Notes: generated by a model not told the origin, from the letters alone. Shown: positions 41,313-57,234, counted from the stretch's first letter. The stretch: DNA of 64,000 nucleotides from Escherichia coli (GCF_003334255.1 NZ_QOWU01000010.1), one strand, 5' to 3'. Translations and numbers: made by a program.

Positions 41313-41336
41313 TGACGGCCTCTGCTGAGGCCGTCA
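41313..41336. terminator. Hairpin between convergent pntB and tqsA
   Basis: TGACGGCCTC (41313-41322) pairs with GAGGCCGTCA (41327-41336) around the loop TGCT. Confidence 0.65.
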
Positions 41337-42240
41337 CTCTTTATTGAGATCGCTTAACAGAACGGCGATGCTTTGACCTCCCGCTGTTTGTTCAAGCGCA
41401 ATTTTGACAATAATTGTCAACGGCACGGAAAGCAGCATACCCACCGGTCCTAACAACCATCCCCAAAAAATCAACGACAAAAATACCACCAATGTGGAAA
41501 GCCCCAGCCCACGCCCCATGATACGCGGCTCCAGAATATTGCCGAAGACCAGATTAATCAGCAGATATCCCGCCAGCACCAGCAACGCTTCGTAGAAGCC
41601 ATTAAACACCAGTACCTGAGCGATAGGGGGGATTGCCGCGAGGACTGAACCAATATTCGGGATGTAATTAAGCGCAAAGGCCAGCAATCCCCAGACAAAA
41701 GCGAAGCGAACATCGAGTGCGGCGAGCATCGCCCAGGCGACCAGGCCGGTGATGATGCTGATGGCTGTTTTCAGCACCAGATAATGAGAAACACTGTCAA
41801 TCGCACGTTGAATCGCCGCCATCCCTTCAACCGGACGCGCCATCATTTGCTGAAATTTTCCGGGCAATTGTGGCACTTCGAGCAGCATAAACAGCACCGT
41901 CAGCAGCAATAAAAATATTGATGACATGGCATTAGATAACTGCGTCAATAAGTTGGTGAGCAACGTCATCGCCGCGTTCGGATCAATATAATGCGCCAGC
42001 TGGTCAACTGAGACGTCAATCCCTACGCGTTGCAACAACGGTTCAAGCGCTTGCAGCGGCGTCATAATAGAGTTGCGATATTGCGGTAACGTCCGCGTCA
42101 ACTCGTTGAGCGCGGAACCCAGATAAGCTAATAGCAACACCATCGCCATCACGATGATGGTCATCAAAATCGACACCGCCAGTACACGCGGCACACGCCA
42201 GCGGACCATGTGTTGCACCAGCGGGTTAAGAATAACAGCA
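41334..42240 (-). pseudogene. tqsA: tqsA (AI-2 exporter) 3' fragment, codons about 47-344, severed from its 5' end by the island
   Basis: The minus-strand frame reads ...[26 protein letters not shown]... through to LSDLNKE. Identity to K-12 TqsA stops at 42240, where island sequence begins. No native start codon or promoter remains. Confidence 0.88.
42232..42240 (+). repeat. Left copy of the 9-bp junction direct repeat ATAACAGCA (attL core candidate)
   Basis: The same 9-mer occurs at 57098-57106. Joining chromosome ...GTTAAGAATAACAGCA to ATAAATAATGCG restores an uninterrupted tqsA frame (..[11 protein letters not shown]..). Confidence 0.8.
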
Positions 42241-42325
42241 TTTTATCATTTAGTGTTTTTTGCTGTTTCATAATGTTTCAGGCTGTGCATTATGTTTTTG
42301 ATTATCAACAGATTTGTGATTTTCC

Positions 42326-42395
42326 TTGTTCCAGCTTGTTTCACGTTGTAGCCCTTTGTGCAACGATCGGTGTAGTCACTGGTGTAGTCACTTTT
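42326..42395 (+). promoter_or_regulatory. Left subterminal repeat block: TTGTTCC..GTTGT motif plus tandem GGTGTAGTCAC x2 (candidate Int arm-type / AlpA sites)
   Basis: TTGTTCCAGCTTGTTTCACGTTGTA lies at 42326-42350 and GGTGTAGTCAC-T-GGTGTAGTCAC at 42369-42391. An imperfect direct copy of the whole block lies at 56969-57028. Confidence 0.55.
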
Positions 42396-42415
42396 TCGTA
42401 AAGAGGGGGTAAAAC

Positions 42416-43645
42416 GTGAGCAGAGCAATGAACAAACTGAGCGATACCTTGCTAAGGAAACTTCATGGTAAGCCAGCGGAGAAAAACACGTTTTATAGTG
42501 ATGGCGGAAACCTGAGCGTGAAATATTTAACATCAGGGAAATTGACCTGGTATTTCACATACAGGGCCGGAACGGGAAGGGAGACACGACCCGAACGCAT
42601 TAAGCTGGGAAGTTATCCTGATCTGAGCCTGAAAGCAGCCAGGGAAAAAGCCGCACAGTGTCGCACATGGCTGGCTGAGGGGAAAAATCCACGTCATGAG
42701 ATGAATTACACCGTACAGGAAGCGTTAAAGCCCGTAACGGTTGGCGATGCGCTCACCTACTGGCTTGAGTATTACGTAAAGGAAAACCGCGTGGATTATA
42801 TCGCCCTGAAAAGGCGACTTAATAATCACGTAATACAGCAGATTGGTGCTATGCCGCTGGATAAATGCGAGCTACGGCACTGGCTGGCCTGTTTTGACCA
42901 GGTGGCAAAGCGAACGCCTGTTACTGCCGGATTCGTGCTACAGGCGTGCAAACAGGCGCTTAAGTTCTGCCGTAGGCGGCGCTATGCAATCAGCAACGTT
43001 CTGGACGATCTGAACGTGGCGGACGTTGGGAAAAAACCGGATATAAGCGAACGTGTCTTAAGTAACAAAGAACTTGGCGAATTATTGCAGGCACTGGACA
43101 AAAAAATATTTTCCCCTTACTACGTCGCGTTAATCCGCCTCCTGATTGTCTTCGGAGCCAGGACGGTAGAACTGAGGCTATCGGAGATCGGGGAGTGGGA
43201 TTTTACGGAAATGCTATGGACCGTTCCGAAGGAGCACAGCAAAACGAAGGTCGCAATATTCCGGCCCATACCGGAAGCGATCCTGCCGTTCGTCACGCAG
43301 CTGGTGGAGCAGAACAGGCACACGGGCTTATTGCTGGGGGAAGTGAAACAGGAGGCCAGCGTATCGCAGTATGGAAGATTAGCGCACAGGAGGCTTAATC
43401 ATCCTCACTGGTCACTGCATGACATCCGGCGCACCTTTACAACCATGCTGAACGATTTAGGCGTTGATCCGCATGTCGTGGAGCAGCTTACAGGTCATCA
43501 GATGCCAGGAATGCAGCGAGTTTATAATCATTCCCGTTATCTGGATGCTAAACGCAATGCGCTGGATATGTGGATGGAGCGGTTAGGGATACTGGCGGGA
43601 ACACATGAAAACGTAACCACGCTACCAGTAGCCAGAAGAAAATAA
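42416..43645 (+). CDS. int: Tyrosine recombinase/integrase, P4-type (N-terminal arm-binding domain)
   Basis: 409-aa ORF with a GTG start (alternative ATG at 42428). The N-terminus LSDTLLRKL..KNTFYSDGGNLSVKYLTSGKLTWYFTYR is typical of P4-like integrases. The C-terminus HDIRRTFTTML..LTGHQ..VYNHSRY carries the catalytic R..HxxR..Y set. Confidence 0.9.
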   Translation: MSRAMNKLSDTLLRKLHGKPAEKNTFYSDGGNLSVKYLTSGKLTWYFTYRAGTGRETRPERIKLGSYPDLSLKAAREKAAQCRTWLAEGKNPRHEMNYTVQEALKPVTVGDALTYWLEYYVKENRVDYIALKRRLNNHVIQQIGAMPLDKCELRHWLACFDQVAKRTPVTAGFVLQACKQALKFCRRRRYAISNVLDDLNVADVGKKPDISERVLSNKELGELLQALDKKIFSPYYVALIRLLIVFGARTVELRLSEIGEWDFTEMLWTVPKEHSKTKVAIFRPIPEAILPFVTQLVEQNRHTGLLLGEVKQEASVSQYGRLAHRRLNHPHWSLHDIRRTFTTMLNDLGVDPHVVEQLTGHQMPGMQRVYNHSRYLDAKRNALDMWMERLGILAGTHENVTTLPVARRK

Positions 43646-43694
43646 TTTTTTTCGTGTTTTTTCAGTATGCGCATACTGGATATGCGAACAGATA

Positions 43695-43740
43695 CAACAT
43701 GCAACAATGAGCAACAATGCGGAACAACTACGAACAAGAG
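43695..43740 (-). promoter_or_regulatory. Inverted copy of the TTGTTC(C/G)..GTTGTT motif cluster downstream of int
   Basis: The plus strand reads CAACATGCAACAATGAGCAACAATGCGGAACAACTACGAACAAGAG, the reverse complement of CTCTTGTTCGTAGTTGTTCCGCATTGTTGCTCATTGTTGCATGTTG. Compare 49457-49484. Confidence 0.45.
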
Positions 43741-44019
43741 ACGAAAAAGTGTACGGATTTATAAGTAGCTGATTTTTAATGTGTTACTGGTTTTTTATAC
43801 ACTAGCGAATCACTCTTTAAATAGCGAGAAAAAAGGCATGAAACAATATTTTATGCCTTTGTATTAACATGAATTTAAATGATTTTATCCTGATTATTCC
43901 TGTTTCTGTAAACCATACGACCTCAACATTTGCCAACTCTGAATCATCCTGACACAATCAGACACATCCCAACGCAATAGAACACGAAATAACTCTTTAA
44001 GAAACGAAAGGGGGCAATA

Positions 44020-44208
44020 GTGTTAAGCACTGATCGGTTTATACGTGAAAAAGAATGCGAAAAGCTAACAGGCCTTAGCCGCTCATGCCGCTACCGCCTG
44101 GAAAAGGCCGGACAATTCCCATCACGTCGTAAACTTGGCGGTCGTTCCGTTGGCTGGTCTTTATCCGAGGTTCTGGCCTGGAAGGATAGCTGCAAGGCAG
44201 TTCATTAA
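44020..44208 (+). CDS. alpA: AlpA-family transcriptional regulator / excisionase-like DNA-binding protein
   Basis: 62-aa ORF (GTG start) with REKECEKLTGLSRSCRYRLEKAGQFPSRRKLGGRSVGWSLSEVLAWK. This matches the AlpA/Xis winged-helix pattern (..TGLSRST.YRL...G.FP.P.KLG.RSV.W...EV..W). Confidence 0.85.
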   Translation: MLSTDRFIREKECEKLTGLSRSCRYRLEKAGQFPSRRKLGGRSVGWSLSEVLAWKDSCKAVH

Positions 44209-44353
44209 TCACGCTGGCGGCACACAGCCGCCACACATCAATCATCTGAACACAGAGCTATAACCATGAAGATTGAATATACGCCAGAACGTGGGCGGGG
44301 ATTCGTTCGCCCTGGTGAGACTGGAAAACCACAAAATTGGGGTTTTTCAGGCA

Positions 44354-44383
44354 TAAAAAAAGCGGCCCCGAAATGGAGCCGCC
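44354..44383 (-). terminator. Rho-independent terminator for the leftward (repressor) transcript
   Basis: The minus strand reads GCGGCTCC-atttc-GGGGCCGC followed by T7. Confidence 0.65.
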
Positions 44384-44477
44384 TTTCTGAACAGATAACA
44401 CGCTGCGCCGTTTGTGTGTGTGATCCCAAACATAAGCACGGGGATGATAGCCGCTATCAGGCTGGTGGGCAATGCAA

Positions 44478-44666
44478 TCAGTCTGGTTCAGTTCGTTGCC
44501 ATACCTGCAATGAGCGCTTTTCCCTGTACTCTTTAAGGAATTGCTCAAGGGCAAAAGCACATGGCGCGAATCTTTCTGATTCATGCTCTATCTTTCTGCG
44601 CCGTCTTTTCCGTGCCGGTGATAATGTTTTGGTCAATTCTTTATCGGTCATTGTGTTGTCCTGCAT
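44478..44666 (-). CDS. Hypothetical small basic protein (57-62 aa), second gene of the leftward operon
   Basis: The ORF lies between the RHH gene and the leftward terminator. The alternative start at 44651 (MTDKELTK) has an AGGA 7-8 nt upstream, and an RKRRRRK patch is present. I recognise no homologue. Confidence 0.35.
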   Translation of the reverse strand: MQDNTMTDKELTKTLSPARKRRRRKIEHESERFAPCAFALEQFLKEYREKRSLQVWQRTEPD

Positions 44667-44708
44667 AGCAATGCGCCGTAATACCTCACACCACGGCGCT
44701 GATAGTGA

Positions 44709-45014
44709 TTATTCTGATTCTTTGGCCTTGCGGCGCTGTAGTTCTTCACGAGCGATGGCGATAAGTTGCCCGAGTTCTTCCGTAGCTTTAATACCAATTT
44801 TTTCCACTTGCGCCAATGCATCGAGAGAAGAAATCAGAGGATTTTCACTGCTTCCTTCTGCCTGGCGGCGGGCGATCTCCCCGCGCATGGCGGTTACTAT
44901 GAATCCGGCGTTGCTTTCGCCGTCCAGTTTTACGGATTCCATGCCATCAAAAGCATCATGTGGGATACGAATTGAAATCTGTTTTGATTTGTCGTTGATA
45001 GTGTTTTTTGCCAT
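44709..45014 (-). CDS. Putative ribbon-helix-helix (Arc/CopG-like) repressor of the island
   Basis: Start set at the ATG at 45014, 6 nt from AGGAGA at 45021-45026. The 101-aa protein MAKNTINDKSKQISIRIPHDAFDGMESVKLDGESNAGFIVTAMRGEIARRQ has a beta-strand/helix/helix pattern typical of RHH. It is divergent from the rightward operon. Confidence 0.5.
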   Translation of the reverse strand: MAKNTINDKSKQISIRIPHDAFDGMESVKLDGESNAGFIVTAMRGEIARRQAEGSSENPLISSLDALAQVEKIGIKATEELGQLIAIAREELQRRKAKESE

Positions 45015-45036
45015 GTGCATTCTCCTAAACAAAAGA

Positions 45037-45113
45037 TGTGATTCAGTATACACAAAAAAGAATCACAAAAAACACTTGACCTGTGATTCAGTTGAATTTA
45101 ATTTAAATCACAC
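45037..45113. promoter_or_regulatory. Divergent switch region: two inverted-repeat operators TGTGATT(C)-N15-17-(G)AATCACA flanking a TTGACC(-35)/TAATTT(-10) rightward promoter candidate
   Basis: O1 is TGTGATTC at 45037-45044 paired with GAATCACA at 45060-45067. O2 is TGTGATTC at 45082-45089 paired with AATCACA at 45106-45112. TTGACC at 45076-45081 is spaced 17 bp from TAATTT at 45099-45104. Confidence 0.5.
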
Positions 45114-45201
45114 CTCAGTAAGAGGATGTAAACGACAACGCCCCGAACTGTTTGCGGCAGTAGCGGGGCGTCTAACCAAACCGTTAACAGGAGTAACGAT
45201 T

Positions 45202-45399
45202 ATGGCTGGAACACAGCATACCCCACGTCTGGCGCACACACAAACTGCCTTTGTGTGGCGTTTTCTGGCACTAAGTGCCGGAGAATCTCAAATCATCCAC
45301 GTAACCGCCTGGACGGAACGCGAAGCGCGTAGCCGTTGCCCGTCCGGTTGTGTTGCTGTATTCGCCGCCCGTATTCGTCAGGGGGTGTGCCATGCCTGA
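45202..45399 (+). CDS. Icd-like (P4 host cell-division inhibitor-like) small protein
   Basis: 65-aa ORF preceded by AGGAG. FVWRFLALSAGESQIIHVTAWTEREARSRCPSGCVAVFAARIR fits the Icd-like pattern (F.W.F.A....I.A.SE.EAR......V..FA.R) as I recall it. It is the only plausible part of the 377-aa track ORF. Confidence 0.5.
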   Translation: MAGTQHTPRLAHTQTAFVWRFLALSAGESQIIHVTAWTEREARSRCPSGCVAVFAARIRQGVCHA

Positions 45400-45712
45400 C
45401 ATGACCAATTACCAGTACCTGATTAATCCGCATTTTAACTGTGAGCATGATATTGCTAAAAAGGTTTATTCCGCTGCGGATGGGGCTACTGACAATATAT
45501 CAATGGCTGTTTCGTCAATTGGTAGCCTGATGTGGTATGCGTCAGAAAATAAGGAATATGACGAAAAGGCCATGCGCATTGATATGGGTAATATTGGTTT
45601 GTTACTGGCAATGCTTGGACATTTTGATATTTCGTTACGGTGCACCATTGAAAATGCCACAGATGCATTAAATGCTATAAAGAAAGCGAATACTGATTCA
45701 AATCGGGGATAA
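45392..45712 (+). CDS. Hypothetical protein (106 aa)
   Basis: The ATG at 45392 overlaps the preceding stop, suggesting translational coupling. I recognise no family. Confidence 0.5.
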   Translation: MPDMTNYQYLINPHFNCEHDIAKKVYSAADGATDNISMAVSSIGSLMWYASENKEYDEKAMRIDMGNIGLLLAMLGHFDISLRCTIENATDALNAIKKANTDSNRG

Positions 45713-45718
45713 ATAATC

Positions 45719-46018
45719 ATGAGAACGTATTTATCTGGCTTTACTGCCAGCGGTTATGCACACCCCAAAATTATCCCCGGCGCTATTTATCTGGATAAGA
45801 ACGGTAACAGAGTAACGGTAAAAGAACTGATGTTTGACCGTGTGTATTTTATTCGTGATGGCTATTCATTTCATAGTTCGCTGAACGTGGAGATCTTTAT
45901 TAGCAGATTCCGGCGGGAAATCCCGCTTTCCAGAAATAACCATGTGTCATGTATGGATGTTGATAAAAAACTACAGGAACTGAAAAACATGATTGCCGCG
46001 TGGAGAGAGCAGAAATGA
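45719..46018 (+). CDS. Hypothetical protein, possibly DUF4222-like (99 aa)
   Basis: The core GAIYLDKNGNRVTVKELMFDRVYFIRDGYSF resembles the DUF4222 pattern seen in P4-like islands (recalled from memory). Its stop overlaps the primase start (ATGA). Confidence 0.45.
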   Translation: MRTYLSGFTASGYAHPKIIPGAIYLDKNGNRVTVKELMFDRVYFIRDGYSFHSSLNVEIFISRFRREIPLSRNNHVSCMDVDKKLQELKNMIAAWREQK

Positions 46019-47832
46019 AAAAAGCGCCAAATTTAAAACACCAGCCGCGTGACAAAATGACGGAAGTCATCATTTTTGCGGGTAGTGATGCGTGGGCACA
46101 TGCGAAGCAGTGGCAGGAACAGGACGGGCGACTGGCTGGCGATAACGTGCCACCTGTCTGGCTTGGAGAGCAACAACTTGCCGAACTGGACAACCTGCAA
46201 ATCGTACCGGACGGACGCTATCGCGTGCGTCTCTACCAGGCGGGGTTATTGCGTCCGGGGCTTGTTAATACCATCGGGCAGAAACTGGCAGCGGCAGGTG
46301 TCAGGGATGCTGATTATTACCCTGAAGGAATGCACAGCCAGAAACGGGAGAACTGGCGCGAATATCTGGAACGTGAGCGGGGAGAGCTGGCGGAAAAGAA
46401 AAAGGTAGTTGAACTGCCTGTAAAGAAAAAAGAGCGGGTAAAAGACGATAACGCTTCATCACTGGCGCTTAACCAGATGGGAGCAAGTCAACGCGGCGAA
46501 GTTCTCCTGGCACATTATGGCGGTGAACTGGCGATTCATGCTGACTCTGACACTGTTCACTATTACAACGGCGTTGTATGGGAGCCAGTACAGGATAAAG
46601 AATTACAGCGAGCTATGGCGCAGATTTTCATTGATGCGGAGATCAGCTATTCGCAGAACGCCATTAAATCGGCGGTCGATACCATGAAGTTAAGTTTGCC
46701 TGTAATGGGGAATACAGCCCGTAACCTGATTGGATTCAGTAACGGTGTTTTTGATACCCGGACAGGCGATTTTCGGGAGCATAACAAAAACGACTGGTTG
46801 TTAATTGCCAGTGAATTACCTTTCAGCCCACCAGCAGAGGGGGAAACGCTGGCAACACATGCGCCGAATTTCTGGAAGTGGTTACGCCGTTCGGTGGCTG
46901 AGAATGACCGCAAGGCGGATCGCGTACTGGCTGCATTATTCATGGTGCTGGCGAACCGGTACGACTGGCAGTTATTCATTGAGGTAACAGGTCCAGGGGG
47001 AAGTGGTAAAAGCGTGATGGCGGAGATTTGCACCATGCTGGCGGGTAAGGCCAACACGGTATCGGCAAGCATGAAGGCGCTGGAAGATGCCAGGGAACGC
47101 GCGTTAGTGGTTGGCTTTTCGCTGATTATCATGCCGGATATGACCCGTTACGCTGGTGATGGCGCAGGAATTAAGGCCATTACAGGCGGTGACAAGGTGG
47201 CAATCGACCCGAAGCATAAAGCCCCCTACTCAACACGCATTCAGGCGGTAGTGTTGGCGGTGAACAATAACGCCATGTCATTCAGTGACCGCAGCGGGGG
47301 GATTTCACGTCGTCGGGTGATATTCAATTTTTCGGAGGTTGTACCGGAAAACGAACGCGACCCCATGCTGGCAGAAAAAATAGAAGGAGAGCTGGCGGTT
47401 GTGATTCGCCACCTGCTTACTCGTTTTTCTGACCAGGACGCAGCTAAACGCCTGCTGTATGAGCAGCAGAAATCAGAAGAAGCTCTGGTGATAAAACGCG
47501 AGGGCGATTCGCTGGTGGACTTCTGCGGCTATCTCATGTCGTCGGTAATGTGTGATGGTCTGTTAGTGGGTAATGCCGAAATTATTCCGTTCAGTCCGCG
47601 CAGGTATCTTTATCACGCCTATCTGGCATATATGAGGGCACACGGATTCGGTAAACCTGTAACACTGACGCGCTTCGGTAAAGATATGCCGGGGGCAATG
47701 GCGGAATATGGCAGGGAGTATATGAAACGGAAAACGAAGCACGGTTTGCGTTCAAACGTGACACTGACGGAGGAATCAGAAGACTGGATGCCATCATGTG
47801 TATCGGTCACTAATGACGATAGCAAAAATTAA
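46015..47832 (+). CDS. Replication initiator: primase/helicase of the P4-alpha / D5 NTPase type (PICI pri-rep)
   Basis: About 605 aa with Walker A VTGPGGSGKS and a Walker B-like FSLIIMPDM. The C-terminal half resembles the phage/plasmid primase P4-family domain, and the iteron origin follows immediately. Confidence 0.8.
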   Translation: MKKAPNLKHQPRDKMTEVIIFAGSDAWAHAKQWQEQDGRLAGDNVPPVWLGEQQLAELDNLQIVPDGRYRVRLYQAGLLRPGLVNTIGQKLAAAGVRDADYYPEGMHSQKRENWREYLERERGELAEKKKVVELPVKKKERVKDDNASSLALNQMGASQRGEVLLAHYGGELAIHADSDTVHYYNGVVWEPVQDKELQRAMAQIFIDAEISYSQNAIKSAVDTMKLSLPVMGNTARNLIGFSNGVFDTRTGDFREHNKNDWLLIASELPFSPPAEGETLATHAPNFWKWLRRSVAENDRKADRVLAALFMVLANRYDWQLFIEVTGPGGSGKSVMAEICTMLAGKANTVSASMKALEDARERALVVGFSLIIMPDMTRYAGDGAGIKAITGGDKVAIDPKHKAPYSTRIQAVVLAVNNNAMSFSDRSGGISRRRVIFNFSEVVPENERDPMLAEKIEGELAVVIRHLLTRFSDQDAAKRLLYEQQKSEEALVIKREGDSLVDFCGYLMSSVMCDGLLVGNAEIIPFSPRRYLYHAYLAYMRAHGFGKPVTLTRFGKDMPGAMAEYGREYMKRKTKHGLRSNVTLTEESEDWMPSCVSVTNDDSKN

Positions 47833-47844
47833 ACTTATGGAATA

Positions 47845-48069
47845 ACTGTTCACCACTGTTCACCCTGTCATAAATATCTTTTGTATCAGTATGTTATAGG
47901 GTGAACAGTTATTTATGAACTGTTCACCAAACTATTCACTGTTCACCTTTTTGATTGTTTATTGAGCTTCAAGGGTGAACAGTGGTGAATAGTTGGTGAA
48001 TAGTTTTTGTGAAACTGTTCACCCCTTAACATTATGAATTAAAAGATAAAATATCAAAAGGTGAACAGG
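47845..48069. repeat. Island replication origin: at least 10 copies of the 10-bp iteron ACTGTTCACC in both orientations, plus an AT-rich tract
   Basis: Direct copies start at 47845, 47855, 47919, 47938 and 48014. Inverted copies (GGTGAACAGT/G) start at 47900, 47974 and 48060. Degenerate copies (GGTGAATAGT) start at 47984 and 47995. An AT-rich stretch spans 48030-48058. Confidence 0.8.
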
Positions 48070-48119
48070 TGAAGGGTTAAAACGCAAAAATTTTAATTTA
48101 CTGCTGTGAGATAAAGCCT

Positions 48120-48365
48120 ATGACAGCGAAGCACACAAAAAAATCACAATCGCACGCCCTTGATTTGACGGAACACTGGTTAAGGGTGTCGATAAAAATC
48201 ATCGACCGCAACGCCGGGGAAGGATATGCGAAAGCACATCCCGAACTGATTAGCTCATTCATGACAACGGCAGCTGCAAACTTTGCCACGCTGACAGAAC
48301 GGGAGATTGCCGAAGCGGAACAGGTGACAACCATCAACGTTAAAACCGGAGAGCAGACAGCATGA
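48120..48365 (+). CDS. Hypothetical protein (81 aa)
   Basis: The ORF's stop overlaps the ssb start (ATGA at 48362-48365). I recognise no family. Confidence 0.5.
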   Translation: MTAKHTKKSQSHALDLTEHWLRVSIKIIDRNAGEGYAKAHPELISSFMTTAAANFATLTEREIAEAEQVTTINVKTGEQTA

Positions 48366-48772
48366 CAGCACAGATAGCAGCTTACGGGCGGCTGGTGGAC
48401 GACCCGCAGGTAAAACAGACCAGTAAGGGCACACCGATGACGCTGGCGCGTATGGCGGTATCGTTGCCATGTAGTCAGGCGCAGGATGGGCAGGCGACGT
48501 TATGGCTATCGGTCATCGCATTTGGTAAGCAGGCCGACTTCCTGGCTAAACATCAAAAAGGCGACGTTGCCAGCGTATCCGGCACGATGCAGGTCAGCCA
48601 GTGGACCGGACAGAACGGGGAAACGCGGCAGGGTTATCAGGTTATTGCAGACAGCGTAATCAGTGCCCGTGCGGCACGTCCTGGCGGGAACAGACGCAAA
48701 ACCACAGGCACACAGGGTAATCAGCCACCAGCGGGAGGCGATGACCCTTACGGTGACGGTATTCCGTTCTGA
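48362..48772 (+). CDS. ssb: Single-stranded DNA-binding protein (short, island-encoded)
   Basis: 136 aa with an OB-fold-like N-terminus (AAYGRLVDDPQVKQTSKGTPMTLARMAV), a Gly/Pro/Gln-rich linker and the acidic tip DDPYGDGIPF typical of bacterial and phage SSBs. Confidence 0.75.
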   Translation: MTAQIAAYGRLVDDPQVKQTSKGTPMTLARMAVSLPCSQAQDGQATLWLSVIAFGKQADFLAKHQKGDVASVSGTMQVSQWTGQNGETRQGYQVIADSVISARAARPGGNRRKTTGTQGNQPPAGGDDPYGDGIPF

Positions 48773-48782
48773 GGGGGTGGCG

Positions 48783-49055
48783 ATGGTACATGACCGCATA
48801 GCGGAAGAACTCGAGGCGAAAGGCTTTTACCGGAGGGCGGCGGCGCGATGGGGTGAAGTCATGCTGCTGGTGGAGACAGACAAGGAACGGCATCAGGTTA
48901 CGATGCGACGGCTGGAATGTTCCAGGAAGGCACAGAAGCCACCGGAGCCGCCGGATAACTTCGGAGACCTGAGAAAGGCAGTAGATCGCACTTATGCTGA
49001 AATGGGTATAGATGGTGTAAGCGATGAAATATGGCGTAATTACCCAGACAGCTAA
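48783..49055 (+). CDS. PerC-family transcriptional activator-like protein (90 aa)
   Basis: The internal ATG at 48783 is preceded by GAGGGGG. MVHDRIAEELEAKGFYRRAAARWGEVML matches the PerC/Pch N-terminal pattern (..AE.LE..G.YRRAA.RW..V) as I recall it. Confidence 0.55.
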   Translation: MVHDRIAEELEAKGFYRRAAARWGEVMLLVETDKERHQVTMRRLECSRKAQKPPEPPDNFGDLRKAVDRTYAEMGIDGVSDEIWRNYPDS

Positions 49056-49060
49056 TCAAC

Positions 49061-49085: not shown

Positions 49086-49179
49086 CACCAGTTGAAACGG
49101 TATGGCGCATTACCGGGTTTTCGTCACGGTCAGGCATAGTTACTATCTGAAACAAACAGACACAACAGAGGAAAAAACA

Positions 49180-49484: not shown

Positions 49485-49558
49485 GACAGGATCGGCATAT
49501 TTTACCCGAACTGAATCATGAGTATTCTCGCCCGTGGTGCCAGGACGCTGGGGCCACT

Positions 49559-49696
49559 TTCCCGCCTGTTAATGTGCTCGCCAATATTCATTACCAGGCG
49601 GGAAAACGATCGGTGCGATTGCTGATTTCCTTATGAAAAACGGTTGAGTTTTTGCCGCGTCCTGGAGTTCCTTACTTAACCCCAGGACTTTTTTTT
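49559..49696 (+). promoter_or_regulatory. Structured leader of the capsid operon: 10-bp stem-loop plus a terminator-like hairpin ending in T8 directly before the capsid ATG
   Basis: TTCCCGCCTG (49559-49568) pairs with CAGGCGGGAA (49595-49604). GTCCTGG (49659-49665) pairs with CCAGGAC (49682-49688) and is followed by T8 (49689-49696). The only SD-like AGGA (49684-49687) lies inside the descending arm. Confidence 0.55.
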
Positions 49697-50854
49697 ATGC
49701 CGAGAATAATCGAATTACGCCAGCAGAAAACCGCCATTAAAAATCAGATGCGCGACATGCTGGAGAACGCGGAAAAAGAAAACCGCAGCCTTAACGATGC
49801 AGAGGGCGCAAAATTTGACGAATTACGCGCTAAAGCTGAATCCCTCGATAAAGACATTTCCCGCCTTGAAGCCATTGCAGACGAAGAGCGCAGCAAGCCA
49901 GGTAAAAGCAGCCAGACCACTGACCCGGCAGAACTCCGCAACTACATCCTGACAGGTGAAACCCGCGCATTAAGTACAGGCGTTCCCGCTGATGGTGGTT
50001 ATACCGTTATCCCCGAACTGAACACCGAAATCATGCGAATGCTGACGGATGAATCCACCATGCGCCGCATCTGTACCGTGAAGAAAATCAGCAGCAACGA
50101 GTTTAAGCAGCTTGTTTCCGCTGGCGGTGCGACCGTTAACCACGGTGAAGAGGGTAAGACACGCGAACAGACCAGCACCCCGCAGATTAACGAGGTGAGC
50201 ATTAAGCTGTATCCGGTCTATGCGTACCCGCGCACCACACAGGAAATCGTGGATTTTTCCGATGTGGACATCCTTTCATGGCTGACGGGTGAGATTGGCG
50301 ACACCTTCACGGAAACCGAAGAAAGCGATCTGGTTGTGGGCGACGGTGACAAAAAAGCAAAAGGTTTTTTATCCGTACCCCGTGCAGAGAAGAACGACAA
50401 AGAGCGTGATTTTGGTACGTTGCAGGTAATTAAACCTTCCGAATCTCTGGCGTGGACATCTGCGGACCCGCTGATCGACCTGAAATTTGCATTACGTAAA
50501 AAATACCGCAAAAACGCGGTCTGGGTGGTTAACTCCACGACGGCGGCAAAACTTCAGAAGGTGAAGAACGCGAACGGTGATTACATCTGGCGCGACCGTT
50601 TACAGGCGGGTGATCCTGATACGTTGCTGGGCCTTCCGGTCGAATATCTGGAGTTTATGCCTGATAACGTTATTGCCCTGGGTGACTTCAAACGCGGTTA
50701 CTACATTGTTGATCACGAAACAGGTGTTCGCACCAGACCGGACAACCTCACAGAGCCGGGCTTCATCAAAATTTTCACGCAGAAATATTTAGGCGGTGGC
50801 GTGGTGGATTCGAACGCGATCAAGATTCTGGAACTGCCACAGGACGACGATTAA
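49697..50854 (+). CDS. Major capsid protein, HK97 fold/family, with an N-terminal coiled-coil (delta/scaffold-like) domain
   Basis: 385 aa from the ATG at 49697 (the track starts at 49652). The N-terminus IELRQQKTAIKNQMRDMLENAEKENRSLNDAEGAKFDELRAKAESLDKDISRLEAI is coiled-coil. The body (..GGYTVIPELNTEI.. YPRTTQEIVDFSDVDILSWL.. GLPVEYLEFMPD..) is typical of HK97-family capsid proteins, and the protease and portal genes are adjacent. Confidence 0.85.
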   Translation: MPRIIELRQQKTAIKNQMRDMLENAEKENRSLNDAEGAKFDELRAKAESLDKDISRLEAIADEERSKPGKSSQTTDPAELRNYILTGETRALSTGVPADGGYTVIPELNTEIMRMLTDESTMRRICTVKKISSNEFKQLVSAGGATVNHGEEGKTREQTSTPQINEVSIKLYPVYAYPRTTQEIVDFSDVDILSWLTGEIGDTFTETEESDLVVGDGDKKAKGFLSVPRAEKNDKERDFGTLQVIKPSESLAWTSADPLIDLKFALRKKYRKNAVWVVNSTTAAKLQKVKNANGDYIWRDRLQAGDPDTLLGLPVEYLEFMPDNVIALGDFKRGYYIVDHETGVRTRPDNLTEPGFIKIFTQKYLGGGVVDSNAIKILELPQDDD

Positions 50855-50864
50855 CAGCATACAG

Positions 50865-50884
50865 AAGGGGCTTAAAAGCCCCTT
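50865..50884 (+). terminator. Hairpin after the capsid gene (attenuator/terminator candidate)
   Basis: AAGGGGC-ttaaaa-GCCCCTT hairpin followed by TAGTGTTTT. Confidence 0.45.
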
Positions 50885-50893
50885 TAGTGTTTT

Positions 50894-51466
50894 ATGGGTG
50901 AAAAAATTATGAAGAGTATGGAAATCCGGTCATCGGAAATCACCACCAGCGCCAGCAACACGCTTACAGGCTACGTTGTTCGCTGGGATAAGCTTTCAGA
51001 GCTGCTATGGGGGGAGTTTTACGAAAAATTCCAGCGGGGAGCGTTTACTGAATGGCTTGCGGCGGGTAATGACGTTCGCGGCCTGTATGAGCATGACCAC
51101 AGCATGTTGCTGGGGCGTACCCGTTCCGGCACGCTGAAACTGGAAGAGGACGAAACAGGGTTACGCTTTGAACTGACCCCACCGGATACCAGTACAGGGC
51201 GCGACGTTATCGAACTGGTTAAGCGTGGGGACATCTCGGGGATGAGCTTTGGCTTTCGCTCCCGTAAGGATGTATGGGATACCACAACAGATCCATGCGT
51301 GCGCACCGTGCTGGTGGCGGAACTGTACGAAATTACCGTTACATCGGTACCGGCTTACCCCGATTCCGGCGTGGAGCTGGCCCGCCGTTCCCTGTATGAG
51401 CAGCACCCCGAAAAAATGCCGCGTGCGGATAATCGCCGCTGGTGGGTGGATTTAGCGGGGGTGTGA
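50894..51466 (+). CDS. Prohead maturation protease, HK97 family
   Basis: 190 aa (alternative start at 50909). The pattern GYVVRWDKLSE..FYEKFQRGAF....DVRGLYEHDHSMLLGRTRSGTLKLEEDETGLRFEL..PDTSTGRDVIELVKRGDISGMSFGF matches HK97 prohead proteases. Confidence 0.85.
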   Translation: MGEKIMKSMEIRSSEITTSASNTLTGYVVRWDKLSELLWGEFYEKFQRGAFTEWLAAGNDVRGLYEHDHSMLLGRTRSGTLKLEEDETGLRFELTPPDTSTGRDVIELVKRGDISGMSFGFRSRKDVWDTTTDPCVRTVLVAELYEITVTSVPAYPDSGVELARRSLYEQHPEKMPRADNRRWWVDLAGV

Positions 51467-51467
51467 T

Positions 51468-52679
51468 ATGTGGCTTTTCAGAAGAAAAAAAGAGCAGCGC
51501 AGCATGACGCTTGATGAATTTATGGCGCTGGCTGGCACATCGAACACGGGGGCGGGTGAGTACGTATCATCGGGGACAGCGGAATCACTGCCCGCCGTCA
51601 TGAACGCCGTGACGGTCATCTCTGAGGCGGTGGCTACCATGCCGTGTTACCTGTACCTGGTACGCAATGAGAAGGGGAAGGAGGCCCGCGAGTGGCTTGA
51701 TTCTCATCCGGTCGATCACATCCTCAACGAGCGCCCGAACGCGTGGCAGACTCCCTACCAGTTTAAGCGAATGATGATCCGCCACTGCCTGTTAAACGGT
51801 AATGCTTATGCGGTGATTCAGTGGGGGCGTGATGGTTTTCCGGTGGCTTTACATCCTTACCCGCCGCAGTCGGTGAACGTGGAGCAGACAGGCGAACACA
51901 ACTGGCGCTACTGCATCACTGACGCCTACACCGGAAACACCCGCAACTATTTACCGTGGGAGGTTCTCCACCTTCGTTACTCCACGGATGACGGTTTTAT
52001 GGGGCGCTCACCTGTAACCATCTGCCGCGAATCGCTGGGGCTTGGGCTGGCCCAACAACGCCACGGCGCGAGCGTGATGCGTGATGGCATGATGGCGGCA
52101 GGGGTTATCACGTCAGGCGAATGGCTGGACGGCGTGAAGGGCAAACAGGCATTAGCCGCACTGGAACGCTACAAAGGGGCCAGAAACGCCGGAAAAACGC
52201 CCATCCTTGAAGGGGGTATGAGCTATCAGCAGCTGGGCATGAGTAATCAGGATGCTGAATGGCTGGCCTCCCGTCGCTTCACCATTGAAGACATCGCCCG
52301 AATGTTCAACGTCTCGCCGATTTTTCTGCAGGAATACAGCAACAGCACCTACAGCAATTTCAGCGAGGCAAGCCGCGCATTTCTCACCATGACAATGCGC
52401 CCGTGGCTGGCGAACTTTGAGCAGCAGATAAAAAACGCCCTGCTGGTGGCCTCGCCTGTACCTGGTATCCGGTATCAGGTGGAGTTTGACAGCGCGGACC
52501 TGTTACGGGCCACACCTGGCGAACGCTTTGCCACCTATGAACGCGGCATCAAATCCGGCGTTATGTGCCCGAACGAAGCCCGCGAACGTGAAGGGCTGTC
52601 CCCGCGTGATGGTGGTGATGAGTTCAGCCAGGCATGGAAACAGGAAGTAAAAATCAGCGAGGGAGAAAAACCGGAATGA
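51468..52679 (+). CDS. Portal protein, HK97 family
   Basis: 403 aa. The conserved core (..NAYAVIQWG..G..L.P..P..V....DDGFMGRSPV....E..GLGLA......S.M..G......)  and the gene's position next to the protease fit HK97-family portals. Confidence 0.85.
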   Translation: MWLFRRKKEQRSMTLDEFMALAGTSNTGAGEYVSSGTAESLPAVMNAVTVISEAVATMPCYLYLVRNEKGKEAREWLDSHPVDHILNERPNAWQTPYQFKRMMIRHCLLNGNAYAVIQWGRDGFPVALHPYPPQSVNVEQTGEHNWRYCITDAYTGNTRNYLPWEVLHLRYSTDDGFMGRSPVTICRESLGLGLAQQRHGASVMRDGMMAAGVITSGEWLDGVKGKQALAALERYKGARNAGKTPILEGGMSYQQLGMSNQDAEWLASRRFTIEDIARMFNVSPIFLQEYSNSTYSNFSEASRAFLTMTMRPWLANFEQQIKNALLVASPVPGIRYQVEFDSADLLRATPGERFATYERGIKSGVMCPNEAREREGLSPRDGGDEFSQAWKQEVKISEGEKPE

Positions 52680-53014
52680 ACATAGGGCGACTGCGTGACA
52701 GGGTAACGATTCAGACCCTGAAACAGACCAGGGATATAACCGGCGAAATACTCGAAACGTGGGAGGACGGTCACACACTCTGGGCAAGCGTGAACATGAT
52801 CAGCAGCAAGGAGGCCATTTCATCGGGTGCAGAGCTGGCGATTGGTACCGTAAGGATCTGGATACGGTACCGGAAGGACATCAATGCCACCAGCCGGATA
52901 AAGGTCAGTACGGGGCCGCTGGCGGGGCGTGTACTGAATATCATCGGGCAGCCGCTGCCGGATGCCGCCAGGACACGCCTTGAAATTCTTTGTCGTGAGG
53001 GCGCGGAAAAATGA
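52676..53014 (+). CDS. Head-tail joining / head-closure protein (SPP1 gp16-like, PF05521-type)
   Basis: 112 aa from the ATG at 52676, which overlaps the portal stop. The RLRDRVTIQ...G.....W.....WA.V...S..E.......A.....I.IRYR.DI pattern is typical of this family. Confidence 0.65.
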   Translation: MNIGRLRDRVTIQTLKQTRDITGEILETWEDGHTLWASVNMISSKEAISSGAELAIGTVRIWIRYRKDINATSRIKVSTGPLAGRVLNIIGQPLPDAARTRLEILCREGAEK

Positions 53015-53307
53015 CAGAAGAACTTATCACCCTGGAAGAAGTGAAACTCCATTGCCGCATCGATGGCGACGAGGAAGACCAGTTAATCAGCGGATACATC
53101 GCCGCATCGCTTGAGGCGTGCCAGATACACATAGGCAGGCGCTTTGATGACGGGCTGGAGTTCACGCCAGCCATAAAGATTGGCTGCATGATGTTTATCG
53201 CTCACCTGTATGAAAATCGCCAGATTGTCGCGGATAACGCAAAAACACGCGTACCCATGACGATTGGTGCACTCTGGACGGCTTACCGTGATGTGGGGGT
53301 GTACTGA
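53011..53307 (+). CDS. gp6-like head-tail connector / DNA-packaging protein
   Basis: 98 aa. The N-terminus ITLEEVKLHCRIDGDEEDQLISGYIAASLEACQIHIGR matches the Phage_connect_1-type signature. The gene is 4-nt coupled to its neighbours. Confidence 0.65.
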   Translation: MTEELITLEEVKLHCRIDGDEEDQLISGYIAASLEACQIHIGRRFDDGLEFTPAIKIGCMMFIAHLYENRQIVADNAKTRVPMTIGALWTAYRDVGVY

Positions 53308-53747
53308 TGCCGTGGCAACCATTAAGACGATGCACAGAACCAGGCTGTAACAGGCGCGTGAAGTCCGGCAAGTGTGAGGAGCACAGGCGGGCGGCATGGC
53401 GTGCAGAGGATGCCAGACGAGGACACCGCCGCGCGCGTGGGTACTCCAGACAGTGGGACAAATACCGCGCCATGTATCTGAGTAAAAACCCGTTATGCGT
53501 GCGATGCCTTGAGAAGGGGATATATACGCCCGCCGTGGTGGTGGATCACATTATCCCGATTAATGGCGGTGATGATGTTCTCTTCTGGCCCGAATGGAAC
53601 CATCAGCCATTGTGCCAGGCGTGCCATAACCAGAAAACGAAATGGCTTGATCCGGCAACAAAAAGCAAGCGTGCCGCAGGTGGATTTCGTGAAGAGGAAG
53701 AACGGGCCGCTAACCGCAATAACTGGATGTATGACGCTGATGAATGA
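53307..53747 (+). CDS. HNH endonuclease (packaging-associated)
   Basis: 146 aa with CxxC..C Zn-finger-like motifs and the HNH core VVDHIIPINGGDDVLFWPEWNHQPLCQACHNQKT. It sits directly upstream of terS/terL, as in HNH-dependent cos phages. Confidence 0.85.
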   Translation: MPWQPLRRCTEPGCNRRVKSGKCEEHRRAAWRAEDARRGHRRARGYSRQWDKYRAMYLSKNPLCVRCLEKGIYTPAVVVDHIIPINGGDDVLFWPEWNHQPLCQACHNQKTKWLDPATKSKRAAGGFREEEERAANRNNWMYDADE

Positions 53748-53913
53748 GCGGGAACAAAACCGCCTTATCCGTGGACTTATAAGGCAGCGTGACGCATGGA
53801 AGACACAGGAAACAGGGCATAAAGATAAAGCGTCAGGACGCGCAGAACGCATCACAGCGAAGCGATTAACCGACCGTGACCGCGAGGTTATGGAATGTTT
53901 CCGCAATCGCTGA
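53731..53913 (+). CDS. Hypothetical small protein (60 aa) between HNH and terS
   Basis: The ATG at 53731 overlaps the HNH 3' end in another frame, giving MTLMNEREQNRLIRGLIRQRDAWK.... I recognise no family, and it could be spurious. Confidence 0.3.
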   Translation: MTLMNEREQNRLIRGLIRQRDAWKTQETGHKDKASGRAERITAKRLTDRDREVMECFRNR

Positions 53914-54035
53914 TGAGGCTGTATGACGGGGTGGGGGGCGTTTTCAGGACAAACCCGACCCCGCCGGGCACCGACCGCCTCCTCAAATTTTTATGCACGG
54001 GAATTTTTTGAAAAATAATCTGACGAAAAATAAGC
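53914..54035 (+). other. Candidate cos region (GC-rich block followed by an A/T tract) upstream of terS
   Basis: The sequence GACGGGGTGGGGGGCG...CCCGACCCCGCCGGGCACCGACCGCCTCC followed by CAAATTTTTATGCACGGGAATTTTTTGAAAAATAATC is non-coding. The position between HNH and terS is where HK97-like phages carry cos. Confidence 0.35.
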
Positions 54036-54392
54036 ATGGCAAGACCACCGAAAGCCCCCGCCTACCTGGATGACATCGCCGTGAAGCAGTGGCGGGAAAA
54101 ATCGCGGCAGCTTGCGGAACGGGGAGACCTGACCCCCGCCGACTGGAGCAATCTGGAACTGTATTGTGTCAACTACTCCATTTACCGGAAAGCCGTCGCA
54201 GACCTTGCGGCGCGCGGGTTCAGCATTGTTAACAGTCAGGGCGGCGAGAGCAGAAACCCCGCATTAAGCGCGAAATCAGACGCTGAAAGGGTGATGATAA
54301 AAATGGCCTCCTTGCTCGGTTTTGACCCGATAAGCCGCCGTAAAAACCCACCGGAAACAGAAGAAGAGGACGAGCTTGACCGCCTGGAATAA
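54036..54392 (+). CDS. terS: Terminase small subunit, P27 family
   Basis: 118 aa. MARPPKAPAYLDDIAVKQWREKSRQLAERGDLTPADWSNLELYCVNYSIYRKA...NPALSA....MIKMASLLGFDPISRRK matches the P27-family TerS pattern. Confidence 0.85.
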   Translation: MARPPKAPAYLDDIAVKQWREKSRQLAERGDLTPADWSNLELYCVNYSIYRKAVADLAARGFSIVNSQGGESRNPALSAKSDAERVMIKMASLLGFDPISRRKNPPETEEEDELDRLE

Positions 54393-56037
54393 GTACGCAG
54401 AAGACGTAAAAACGGGCAAAATTCAGGCCTGTAAACGGTTAAAACAGGCCGTTAAACGGTACTTTTCGGACCTTAAAAGCCCCCTTTACACGTTCGATCG
54501 TGAGGTTGTGGATCGGTTTATTGCCTTTTCCAGGGTGTGCCCGCACGTAAAAGGGCCGATGCGTGGCAGACCCATTGAGCTGGAGCCGTGGCAGCAGTTC
54601 GCCTTTGCGTGCATCCTCGGCTTTAAGGTTAAGGCCACCGGACGGCGCAAATATACGAGCGCCTTTATCGAAGTGCCGCGCAAAAATGCTAAATCAACGA
54701 CCGCCGCGATTCTGGCTAACTGGTTTCTGATTATGGAGAACGGTCAGCAGGATATTTACACCGCAGCGGTGAGCCGTGACCAGGCGAGGATCGTATTTGA
54801 TGATGCGCGTCAGATGTGCATTTTATCCCGACCGTTACGCAGGCGGGTGAATATTCAGGCGCATAAGGTGATACACCCGAAAACCAACAGCCTGTTAAAG
54901 CCGCTGGCAGCAAAAGCGGCAACTATCGAGGGCACAAACCCCAGTCTTTCTATCGTGGACGAATACCACCTACACCCCGACAACGGCGTATATTCTGCGC
55001 TTGAACTGGGGATGGGGGCACGTCCCGAAGGGCTGTTATTTGCCATTACCACATCGGGAAGTAACGTCGTTTCAGCCTGTAAGCAGCATTATGATTATTG
55101 CTGCCAGATCCTGGACGGCGAAGAGGTTAACGAATCGCTTTTTGTGCTGATTTACGAACTGGACGACGAAAACGAGGTTGATGATCCGGAGATGTGGATA
55201 AAGGCGAACCCTAATATCGATGTTTCCGTGGATCGTGAAAAACTGGCCTCAACCATTCAGAAAGCGCGGGGTATTCCGTCGCAATGGGTGGAGATGATGA
55301 CAAAGCGATTTAATATCTGGTGTCAGGGGACTACCCCGTGGATGGGTAATGGTGCATGGGCTGAGTGTGCCGGAACGTTCACGGAGGAAGATTTACACGG
55401 TCAGGAGTGTTACGCGGGGCTGGACTTATCATCAACCAGCGATATTTCCAGCGTGTGCTATGCCTTTCCGGTCGGTAAAACCATTATGATGATTTCCCGT
55501 CATTATCTGCCGGAGTTCCAGCTACAGAACCCCGCCAATAAAAACCGCGCTGTCTATCGTCAGTGGGCTAAAGCAGGCTGGATACGCACAACGCCTGGCG
55601 ACTGCATTGATTACGACCGGATCAGAGATGACATCATGCAGGACGCGGAGAAATTTAATATCAGGCTGGTGGGCTTTGATACGTGGAACGCCACGCATCT
55701 CAGAACGCAATTACAGGGGGCAGGTTTTGAGGTGGAGCCGTTCCCGCAAACCTACCTCAGATTCAGTCCGGCGGCGAAATCGTTCGAAGTTTTTGTTAAC
55801 CGCAGGGTGATTGTGCATCGTGGCGATCCGGTGTTGTCCTGGTCGATGAGTAACGTCGTGATGCAGAGTGACGCGAACGCCAATATCAAGCCGAACAAGA
55901 AAAAATCACCGAACAAGATAGACCCGAGCGTGGCGGCGCTGATGGCGTTTGGTACATTCCAGGCAGAGCATGAGGATTTTGCTTTTGATATAAGCGACAG
56001 CCACCGCCAGAAACTGGAAGAATTTAGCGGGGTGTAA
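54376..56037 (+). CDS. terL: Terminase large subunit (ATPase/nuclease)
   Basis: 553 aa with a TTG start 7 nt after GAGGA, overlapping the terS end. A Walker A-like VPRKNAKST, a DEYH Walker B/coupling motif (SIVDEYH) and a C-terminal nuclease-like region are present. The size and position are typical of TerL. Confidence 0.85.
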   Translation: MTAWNKYAEDVKTGKIQACKRLKQAVKRYFSDLKSPLYTFDREVVDRFIAFSRVCPHVKGPMRGRPIELEPWQQFAFACILGFKVKATGRRKYTSAFIEVPRKNAKSTTAAILANWFLIMENGQQDIYTAAVSRDQARIVFDDARQMCILSRPLRRRVNIQAHKVIHPKTNSLLKPLAAKAATIEGTNPSLSIVDEYHLHPDNGVYSALELGMGARPEGLLFAITTSGSNVVSACKQHYDYCCQILDGEEVNESLFVLIYELDDENEVDDPEMWIKANPNIDVSVDREKLASTIQKARGIPSQWVEMMTKRFNIWCQGTTPWMGNGAWAECAGTFTEEDLHGQECYAGLDLSSTSDISSVCYAFPVGKTIMMISRHYLPEFQLQNPANKNRAVYRQWAKAGWIRTTPGDCIDYDRIRDDIMQDAEKFNIRLVGFDTWNATHLRTQLQGAGFEVEPFPQTYLRFSPAAKSFEVFVNRRVIVHRGDPVLSWSMSNVVMQSDANANIKPNKKKSPNKIDPSVAALMAFGTFQAEHEDFAFDISDSHRQKLEEFSGV

Positions 56038-56050
56038 TGAGGTCAGCAGC

Positions 56051-56332
56051 ATGACAGAAGCCGAAATAACGGGATTAATCCGCCGCGTTGCCGGAATCAG
56101 CCAGCAGGCTGACGAACAGGCCACGCAGCCGGACAGCGTGACAGCCGAAAACTATGCGCGTGTTGTTGCTGAGGTGATGCGCCGTGATGGTATAGAACTT
56201 AATGGCGTGGATATGCGCAACATACGAACCAGAGTTCTTGAGTTGCTGGCCTACCGTCGCCGCGTGGAGATGTATCGGGAGAAGGAGAAAATAACGTACC
56301 ACTGGAAGAAGCCGGAGCGGTTGCGGCGGTAA
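56051..56332 (+). CDS. Hypothetical protein (93 aa) downstream of terL
   Basis: ORF starting MTEAEITGLIRRVAGISQQADEQ with a basic C-terminus. I recognise no family. Confidence 0.45.
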   Translation: MTEAEITGLIRRVAGISQQADEQATQPDSVTAENYARVVAEVMRRDGIELNGVDMRNIRTRVLELLAYRRRVEMYREKEKITYHWKKPERLRR

Positions 56333-56589
56333 CTGGTTGATATTCCCGACGGACCAAAAATGGGTGGCTACATCCCTCGCTTCTGAGGACTGTTAACAAG
56401 CTGCCTGAAAGACAGTCACAAACTACGAAATTTTCGCAGTTTAATTAATGATCAGCTTAATCGCTAACCCGCTGATATTTTCGGAAACCTCAATTTGAGG
56501 AAGTCGGCGCGGTAACTCGCTGAACTTTAAGCAAAGTGCAAAATTGCGCTTGCTGAATAATCATTATGATTACGCAGATGATTAAGGAA

Positions 56590-56890
56590 TGACCGAAGGC
56601 GGAAATTCGCCTGTGGTTAATGGGGGAGTTGCAGATCTGCAACTCGACCATGAAACTACGGAAACTACCCGTAGTTTGGGTAGTAAGAGTAACACCCAGA
56701 TTTTGGGTCTTACTCGTGATACCCAAATTTGGGGTATCAGTGGCAACCATAACGACTTTCGTTACGGTTGATGCTTTTACCCCATTGGGGGAAAGGTATT
56801 ACGATAATCATAACACCTACCGAACAGGTAAAGCCCACCAGCCTGATTAACGTTTAACCGGAAAAAAATTCCGGTAGGTGGGGATCCCCA
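56590..56890. other. Palindrome-dense non-coding segment (at least 8 consecutive perfect or near-perfect hairpins)
   Basis: GGCG/CGCC lies at about 56598-56611. GAGTTGCAGATCTGCAACTC is a perfect 20-bp palindrome at 56626-56645. AAACTACGG (56653-56661) pairs with CCGTAGTTT (56669-56677). Further elements are ACCCAGATTTTGGGT, GATACCCAAATTTGGGGTATC, AACCATAACGA/TCGTTACGGTT, ACCGGAA-aaaaa-TTCCGGT and TGGGGATCCCCA (56878-56889). Confidence 0.6.
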
Positions 56891-56968
56891 TATCGACATT
56901 AACGCCCCTCATGAATTGGTGCGCTTCCCCCTGGAAAGATGATCCGCCTGTATATTTCTTGTGTCTAT

Positions 56969-57028
56969 TTGTTCCACGTTGTTTCATACAGTGCACCGAA
57001 CGGTGTAGTCACTGGTGTAGTCATTTTG
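56969..57028 (+). promoter_or_regulatory. Right subterminal repeat block (TTGTTCCACGTTGTTTCA ... GGTGTAGTCAC-T-GGTGTAGTCAT)
   Basis: This is an imperfect direct copy of 42326-42395. The tandem 11-mers lie at 57002-57012 and 57014-57024. Confidence 0.55.
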
Positions 57029-57097
57029 CGATTTTTGGCACTTTTTGCGGTGAAAATTATTTAATTAAATCAACGTGTTATGTGAAATAAGTTATAT

Positions 57098-57106
57098 ATA
57101 ACAGCA
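57098..57106 (+). repeat. Right copy of the 9-bp junction direct repeat ATAACAGCA (attR core candidate)
   Basis: It is identical to 42232-42240, and the chromosome resumes here in the tqsA frame. Confidence 0.8.
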
Positions 57107-57234
57107 ATAAATAATGCGAGAATAAACGGCACGATGATCTCGGCGGCAAAACGGATACCGCAGAGAATAATGACCAGCATTCCCAACATAATGACGATTT
57201 TTAGGCCATTGAGCGTGATGATCGGCTTTGCCAT
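57098..57234 (-). pseudogene. tqsA: tqsA 5' fragment (codons 1 to about 46), with its native promoter side
   Basis: The minus-strand ATG at 57234 gives [46 protein letters not shown]. The frame then runs into island sequence (YNLFHITR, stop at about 57070). Confidence 0.88.

Follow-up and report, generated by a model that had tools for sequence, protein, structure and literature searches.

Can a phage satellite that lands in the middle of a conserved host gene, and leaves it unrepaired, act as a switch for that gene, or is the broken gene a side effect of where the satellite integrates? The question is raised by a 64,000-nucleotide stretch of an Escherichia coli genome (GCF_003334255.1 NZ_QOWU01000010.1; hereafter the window), in which an island of 14,866 bp lies within tqsA, the gene for the autoinducer-2 (AI-2) exporter. 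The original prediction, made from the sequence alone, placed the island inside the tqsA open reading frame (ORF) with 9 bp common to both junctions, held that excision would restore the gene exactly and proposed a reversible gene switch. The structural part of this proposal stands. The sequence ATAACAGCA occurs at 42232-42240 and at 57098-57106, with 0 bp of flanking identity on either side beyond the 9 bp, and tqsA, on the minus strand, runs from its start at 57234 to the junction at 57098 and resumes from 42240 to 41334. When 42241-57106 is removed in silico, the remaining 907 nt (42240-41334) and 128 nt (57234-57107) together form a 1,035-nt ORF of 344 amino acids, with 0 of 1,035 nt differing from tqsA of K-12 MG1655; likewise, the rebuilt 400-bp bacterial attachment site (attB) is matched at 100% in K-12, HS and many other genomes. 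The junction match and the exactness of this restoration are far beyond chance. Alignment of the junctions with the uninterrupted gene, which proved identical to the restored one and in frame, located the shared 9 bp in tqsA codons 43-46 (nt 129-137).

The 9 bp had been described as a target duplication, a description that has to be given up: the 9-mer is already present once in the attachment site of the island (attP), which makes it the common core of attP and attB for a tyrosine recombinase. We searched public collections for the predicted attP junction, that is, the island right end, one ATAACAGCA and the island left end. An IMG/VR contig of 11,098 bp (L008) contains it and has a 119-bp terminal repeat, indicating a circular assembly; it is 99.95% identical to an 11-kb island from strain 300709. 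A second, permuted metagenome contig (L009), 95-98% identical, has the same attP junction. Both contigs hold a single core and lack tqsA flanks, which places the core in the element itself and the recombination event precisely inside that core. Judged from these assemblies, excised, replicating or packaged forms of this tqsA-type integrase-attP (int-attP) module exist in nature, with the caveat that tandem arrays could assemble alike. A transposon-type duplication was rejected on two grounds: in excised or circular forms the island ends are joined through one copy of ATAACAGCA, and every tqsA-type module found occupies one site.

The sequence around the core also has the layout of an integrase attachment site. 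Exact copies of GGTGTAGTCA number four, two in each attP arm, and no other occurs in the 64 kb; allowing up to one mismatch gives seven sites, a count reached in 0 of 100 shuffles. Together with an integrase carrying PF13356 and PF00589 and the shared 9-bp core, this repeat layout is typical of the arm-type sites of P4-family integrases.

Whether related islands always sit in tqsA was addressed across 5,426 complete E. coli genomes. The site was uninterrupted in 5,167 of these, whereas 247 contained the attL junction, 245 the attR junction and 244 the left end of the tqsA-type int-attP module (at least 94.6% identity), so that about 4.5% of genomes are occupied and 95% are without the element. 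The next identity band, at or below 86%, is made up of sibling integrases located elsewhere, among them those of CFT073 and O157:H7. The module is essentially always in tqsA and looks strictly tqsA-specific; nearly every interruption of the site is due to it, with decayed remnants being rare. Carriers include O26:H11, O103, O111, O121 and O55:H7 strains, a few O157:H7 strains, PCN033 and one ST1193 strain, a range of backgrounds that points to repeated independent acquisition. Searching species-representative genomes with the integrase returned only one locus, in Shigella flexneri, at 91% identity, the level of the sibling integrase that targets the roxA|phoQ intergenic region. Two genomes showed other changes at the site. 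In CFSAN004176 (L006, about position 3000; window 41612 joined to 57116), an internal tqsA deletion of about 637 bp has one end 10 bp from the att core; an island once present may have been lost imprecisely here, breaking tqsA for good. In 11A20CPO008 (L005 601-1208), tqsA consists of two pseudogene pieces with about 208 extra bp overlapping the att region, either a tandem duplication or an assembly artefact.

The island leaves its target gene unrepaired, as had been predicted. The 5′ fragment continues for eight island codons (YNLFHITR) and then stops, giving a 54-residue ORF, and an in-frame TGA TAA stands directly 5′ of the 3′ fragment. In the cryo-electron microscopy (cryo-EM) structure of TqsA, helix H2 extends from Ala31 to Trp57, and H1 (Thr7-Phe29) makes contacts that hold the pentamer together (PMC9475539). 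The break falls in the conserved N-terminal portion of TqsA, in the middle of H2, leaving a 3′ part of 298 codons without H1 and half of H2. This amends an earlier description of the 3′ fragment as lacking a promoter, a start codon and the first transmembrane segment: H1 is indeed missing, but half of H2 is gone too, and in-frame start codons do exist 22-31 nt downstream of the junction (GTG at 42218 and ATG at 42209), with a weak GGTG 6 nt upstream of the ATG. The promoter claim agrees with our own scan, limited to consensus matching, which predicted no sigma-70-like promoter in 41900-42700, including any for outward transcription into the 3′ fragment.

Could the 3′ fragment nonetheless be transcribed from an island promoter, translated from one of these two starts and still active in transport? 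The starts themselves would allow it, as would the retention of most of the Pfam domain, for which the attB:attLR score ratio is only about 1.27 (PMC7192596 supplementary file 5). We regard this as highly improbable, given the negative promoter scan, the orientation of the left-end island genes away from the fragment and the annotation of both tqsA pieces as pseudogenes in RefSeq. Because the break lies in H2, nothing rebuilds the gene and the 298 3′ codons stand behind two in-frame stops with no predicted promoter, carriers of the island are very probably tqsA-null. No polar effect on neighbouring genes is expected, because tqsA is monocistronic, with convergent pntAB on one side and divergent ydgV-mdtJI on the other. 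A minus-strand ORF at 42246-42533 was considered as a rebuilt N-terminus in frame with the 3′ part and rejected, since two stops intervene and it has neither transmembrane character nor a protein family match. This ORF is antisense to the start of the integrase gene, where RefSeq has a 60-residue hypothetical protein (WP_001332680.1). No PHROG entry matches the ORF, which is unlikely to be a gene. With tqsA 97-100% identical across E. coli genomes, looking for decay of the split copy in carriers would have no power.

By its gene content, the island is a capsid-forming phage-inducible chromosomal island (cf-PICI; Table 1). Its left module is of the PICI type, with int at the left end, alpA and a primase (Pfam), and nearly all genes lie on the plus strand. 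It also carries its own capsid and packaging set (capsid, protease, portal, connectors, HNH endonuclease and the small and large terminase subunits, TerS and TerL; Pfam and PHROG), the proteins of which differ at 0-12 residues from the lineage of the satellite EcCIEDL933. Tail or lysis genes are neither annotated in a 99.8%-identical island, that of G6/7, nor present among the window ORFs scanned. Such a gene set defines capsid-forming PICIs, and in experiments EcCIEDL933 was induced in a manner dependent on helper phage and alpA, with tail-less capsids released that take phage tails (bioRxiv 10.1101/2022.09.08.507074). Among deposited phage genomes there is no close relative (best match, 77% identity over 21%), and the island is not a catalogued phage.

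Table 1 Features of the tqsA island and its target gene, in window coordinates
Feature	Position	Strand	Remark
tqsA 3′ fragment (att core in codons 43-46 to stop)	41334..42240	-	In RefSeq relatives, tqsA pseudogene without N-terminus
attL copy of the 9-bp common core ATAACAGCA	42232..42240		
Int-proximal attP arm (P′) and int upstream region	42241..42415	+	On the minus strand, in-frame TGA TAA directly upstream of tqsA 3′ fragment
Two tandem arm-type repeats GGTGTAGTCA(CT), 12-bp spacing	42369..42392	+	Int-proximal arm (exact repeats 42369-42390)
Tyrosine integrase, 409 amino acids, Arm-DNA-bind_3 (PF13356) and Phage_integrase (PF00589)	42416..43645	+	1 amino acid different from WP_000085276.1
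AlpA-family regulator	44020..44208	+	Pfam; PICI induction regulator in Gram-negative PICIs
Primase/D5-type helicase, island replication protein	46000..47832	+	Differs from DUF927 rep of EcCIEDL933
Single-strand DNA-binding protein	48362..48772	+	
PerC-family transcriptional activator, accessory gene	48783..49055	+	
HK97-type major capsid protein	49697..50854	+	0/385 amino acids different from EcCIEDL933
Prohead serine protease (S78)	50894..51466	+	
Portal protein	51468..52679	+	
Head closure (Hc1) and head-tail adaptor (Ad1) genes	52676..53307	+	
HNH endonuclease, packaging accessory	53307..53747	+	
Terminase small subunit (54036-54392) and large subunit (54376-56037)	54036..56037	+	
Two tandem arm-type repeats GGTGTAGTCA, distal attP arm (P)	57002..57023	+	Same orientation as the pair at 42369
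tqsA 5′ fragment behind native upstream region	57070..57234	-	46 native codons, 8 island codons and stop; 54-residue ORF
attR copy of the 9-bp common core ATAACAGCA	57098..57106		

Some features of the island stand apart from its integration. The only segment that differs from the G6/7 island, which is otherwise 99.2-99.9% identical, is 44707-45234, with 528 bp here versus 361 bp in G6/7, where a YlcI/YnfO-family gene on the minus strand (44709-45053) and icd-like genes are located. The PerC-family activator at 48783-49055(+) is also found in EcCIEDL933. At the right end (56335-57646, plus strand), the late genes of the island all face the tqsA 5′ stub and then, on the same strand, ydgV-mdtJI; the one terminator-like hairpin predicted on the plus strand is at 56318-56335, and on induction, transcription could conceivably run on into the genes of the spermidine exporter.

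We observed the junctions, an exactly restored gene, strict specificity for the site and natural excised attP forms of the int-attP module; beyond this, the account that we consider likely runs as follows. A cf-PICI of 14,866 bp would have integrated by means of its own P4-type tyrosine integrase into an attB with core ATAACAGCA within tqsA, strand exchange inside the core common to attP and attB leaving one core copy at each junction. The gene would thereby have been cut in helix H2, with its native upstream region now feeding a 54-residue stub, and excision mediated by Int would be exact and regenerate wild-type tqsA. We infer that the inactivation of tqsA is a tolerated by-product of the position of attB, probably buffered by the three paralogous AI-2E-family proteins. 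Reversal would come about only by rare curing or in helper-infected cells, and not through a dedicated, physiologically triggered switch. PICI induction leads through replication and packaging to lysis. Because this induction normally accompanies helper-phage lysis, restoration of tqsA would take place mostly in doomed cells. In Gram-negative PICIs, induction requires the activation of AlpA by helper phage (bioRxiv 10.1101/2022.09.08.507074), and E. coli does encode three further AI-2E-family proteins (PMC9475539). The integrase of EcCIEDL933, a sibling of 91% identity and the closest relative, uses the intergenic roxA|phoQ site, which argues for a by-product and against a dedicated switch.

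Several observations weigh against so neutral an account. A target in the middle of a conserved core gene, left unrestored, is unusual for integrases, and a hit of this kind is the very criterion by which regulated gene integrity is nominated (PMC7192596). The carrier backgrounds are diverse and many independent integrations persist; intact and occupied sites together make up 5,414 of about 5,423 genomes, with almost no decayed remnants, a pattern that fits frequent precise gain and loss. Deletion of tqsA is reported to raise biofilm formation, motility and the intracellular AI-2 level (Herzberg 2006, cited through PMC9475539), which makes phenotypically silent carriage unlikely.

Much of this evidence is also what a switch akin to regulated gene integrity or active lysogeny would leave behind, in which the island excises conditionally, possibly persists transiently as an episome, restores AI-2 export and then re-integrates in living cells. 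The conserved coding region is hit mid-gene and unrestored, precise excision yields in silico a product identical to K-12 tqsA, and attP at the same core is seen in the excised forms (L008 and L009). Interrupted (247) and intact (5,167) alleles coexist in many lineages under one site-specific integrase clade. Reversible excision has precedents: Streptococcus mutL harbours a chromosomal element, and Listeria comK a prophage, that behave in this way, and tqsA is itself an explicitly listed candidate (PMC7192596). We nevertheless think such a switch improbable. There is no evidence of excision without induction by helper phage, whose activation of alpA is needed; tandem arrays, or DNA being packaged or replicated in induced cells, may be the source of the attP contigs; the nearest relative of the integrase manages with an intergenic site; and 95% of E. 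coli genomes are without the element. No sign of reversible episomal maintenance was found in this analysis. Somewhat less improbable, although still unlikely, is a selected knock-out, in which the loss of TqsA benefits satellite or host, the integrase evolved to hit tqsA and reversal is unneeded. Such a benefit could come from higher intracellular AI-2 and lsr expression, from more biofilm or from altered AI-2-dependent prophage induction, and hence helper availability. It would agree with the strict specificity for a mid-gene site, with the reported gains of tqsA deletion mutants in biofilm, motility, intracellular AI-2 and lsr expression, with the finding that in E. coli phage T1 chooses between lysogeny and lysis under AI-2 control (PMC6737242) and with the presence of two different satellite types on one tqsA-specific module. 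However, only 4.5% of genomes are occupied, the intergenic target of the sibling integrase indicates that the clade has no need of gene inactivation, and the site may have been chosen simply for its sequence conservation.

The tolerated by-product thus remains our preferred reading, and it is doubtful that tqsA satellites either form a conditional switch, excising in viable cells, or trap AI-2 through carriage and so tune helper-prophage induction. If either were true, the state of a satellite would be coupled to interspecies quorum signalling, and if AI-2 export were toggled, about 4.5% of E. coli genomes, many Shiga-toxin strains of O26, O103 and O111 among them, would have a trait in quorum signalling and biofilm formation under the control of a satellite. 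For annotation, the tqsA 'pseudogenes' of carriers are to be taken as att junctions and not as decay. The locus introduces no new principle; it offers a clean, well-delimited site-specific satellite insertion that inactivates a core gene, and with it a test case for the published hypothesis of regulated gene integrity.

Among known satellites, the window island most resembles EcCIEDL933, with the same gene set in the same order (int, alpA, rep, ssb, perC, capsid, protease, portal, connectors, HNH, TerS and TerL) and likewise no tail genes. Capsid and TerS show 0 amino acid differences, HNH 1, protease 2 and portal 3, and the DNA of the packaging modules is 97.7% identical. The two differ in site, EcCIEDL933 occupying the space between roxA and phoQ, where its core includes GGACATA, whereas the window island has a tqsA-specific int-attP; in integrase, with 372 of 409 residues identical (37 differ, 91%); and in replication, with a DUF927-type rep in EcCIEDL933 and a D5-type primase in the window. 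EcCIEDL933 was therefore rejected as an occupant of tqsA, given its roxA-phoQ location in EDL933 and in O157:H7 strain 3384. Compared over the integrase genes (window 42416-43645; L010 40330-41559; L002 2501-3904), nearly all 37 differences between the tqsA type and the roxA|phoQ type fall in residues 1-260, and the attP arms of the two types (window 57050-57106; L002 17890-17960) share homology throughout apart from about 30 bp beside the core in the distal arm. This contrast in integrase and attP looks like a natural, recent switch of core specificity. The int-alpA end of the window island (42241-45394) is in turn 98.4% identical to the 11-kb PICI in the same tqsA site of strain 300709, and the replication module is unlike that of either relative. 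The 300709 PICI (L001 17201-28176) has a different capsid gene and a head decoration gene, with no annotated large terminase or portal. On these comparisons, the window island is a mosaic, whole cargo modules apparently having been swapped behind one integration module.

Compared with other integration systems, the island is familiar in its enzyme and unusual in its target. P4-family integrases mostly target tRNA genes or gene ends and regenerate what they interrupt. The window integrase shares with them its domain architecture, arm-type repeats on both attP arms and a short identical core in attP and attB, but its target is a protein-coding gene, at codons 43-46, for which it brings no replacement fragment. 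With the Streptococcus pyogenes mutL island and the Listeria comK prophage it has in common a phage-related element in or before a host gene whose precise excision restores expression; those elements, however, excise in living cells under defined conditions and re-integrate as a circle, whereas the family of the window island is induced by helper phage. The closest precedents concern tqsA itself, which appeared in a list of core genes broken by integrating prophages (Bobay et al. 2013, PMC3603311) and later as a newly named candidate in a study of regulated gene integrity (Mageeney et al. 2020, NAR, PMC7192596). The latter study described three E. coli elements that break UPF0118 at the tqsA position, Eco33.11.tqsA, Eco557.15.tqsA and Eco282.16.tqsA, of 11, 15 and 16 kb, and its authors considered experiments to be required to confirm regulation. 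These elements agree with ours in the gene, in the UPF0118 Pfam domain broken near its start, in sizes that match the 11-kb and 14.9-kb islands and in the hypothesis that integration inactivates and excision reactivates. Nothing essential sets them apart; the papers gave neither an identification as PICI or cf-PICI nor an experimental test. Both the tqsA site and the idea of a gene switch are thus already published, and the window is one further example of an insertion already on record, made by a satellite of a familiar kind.

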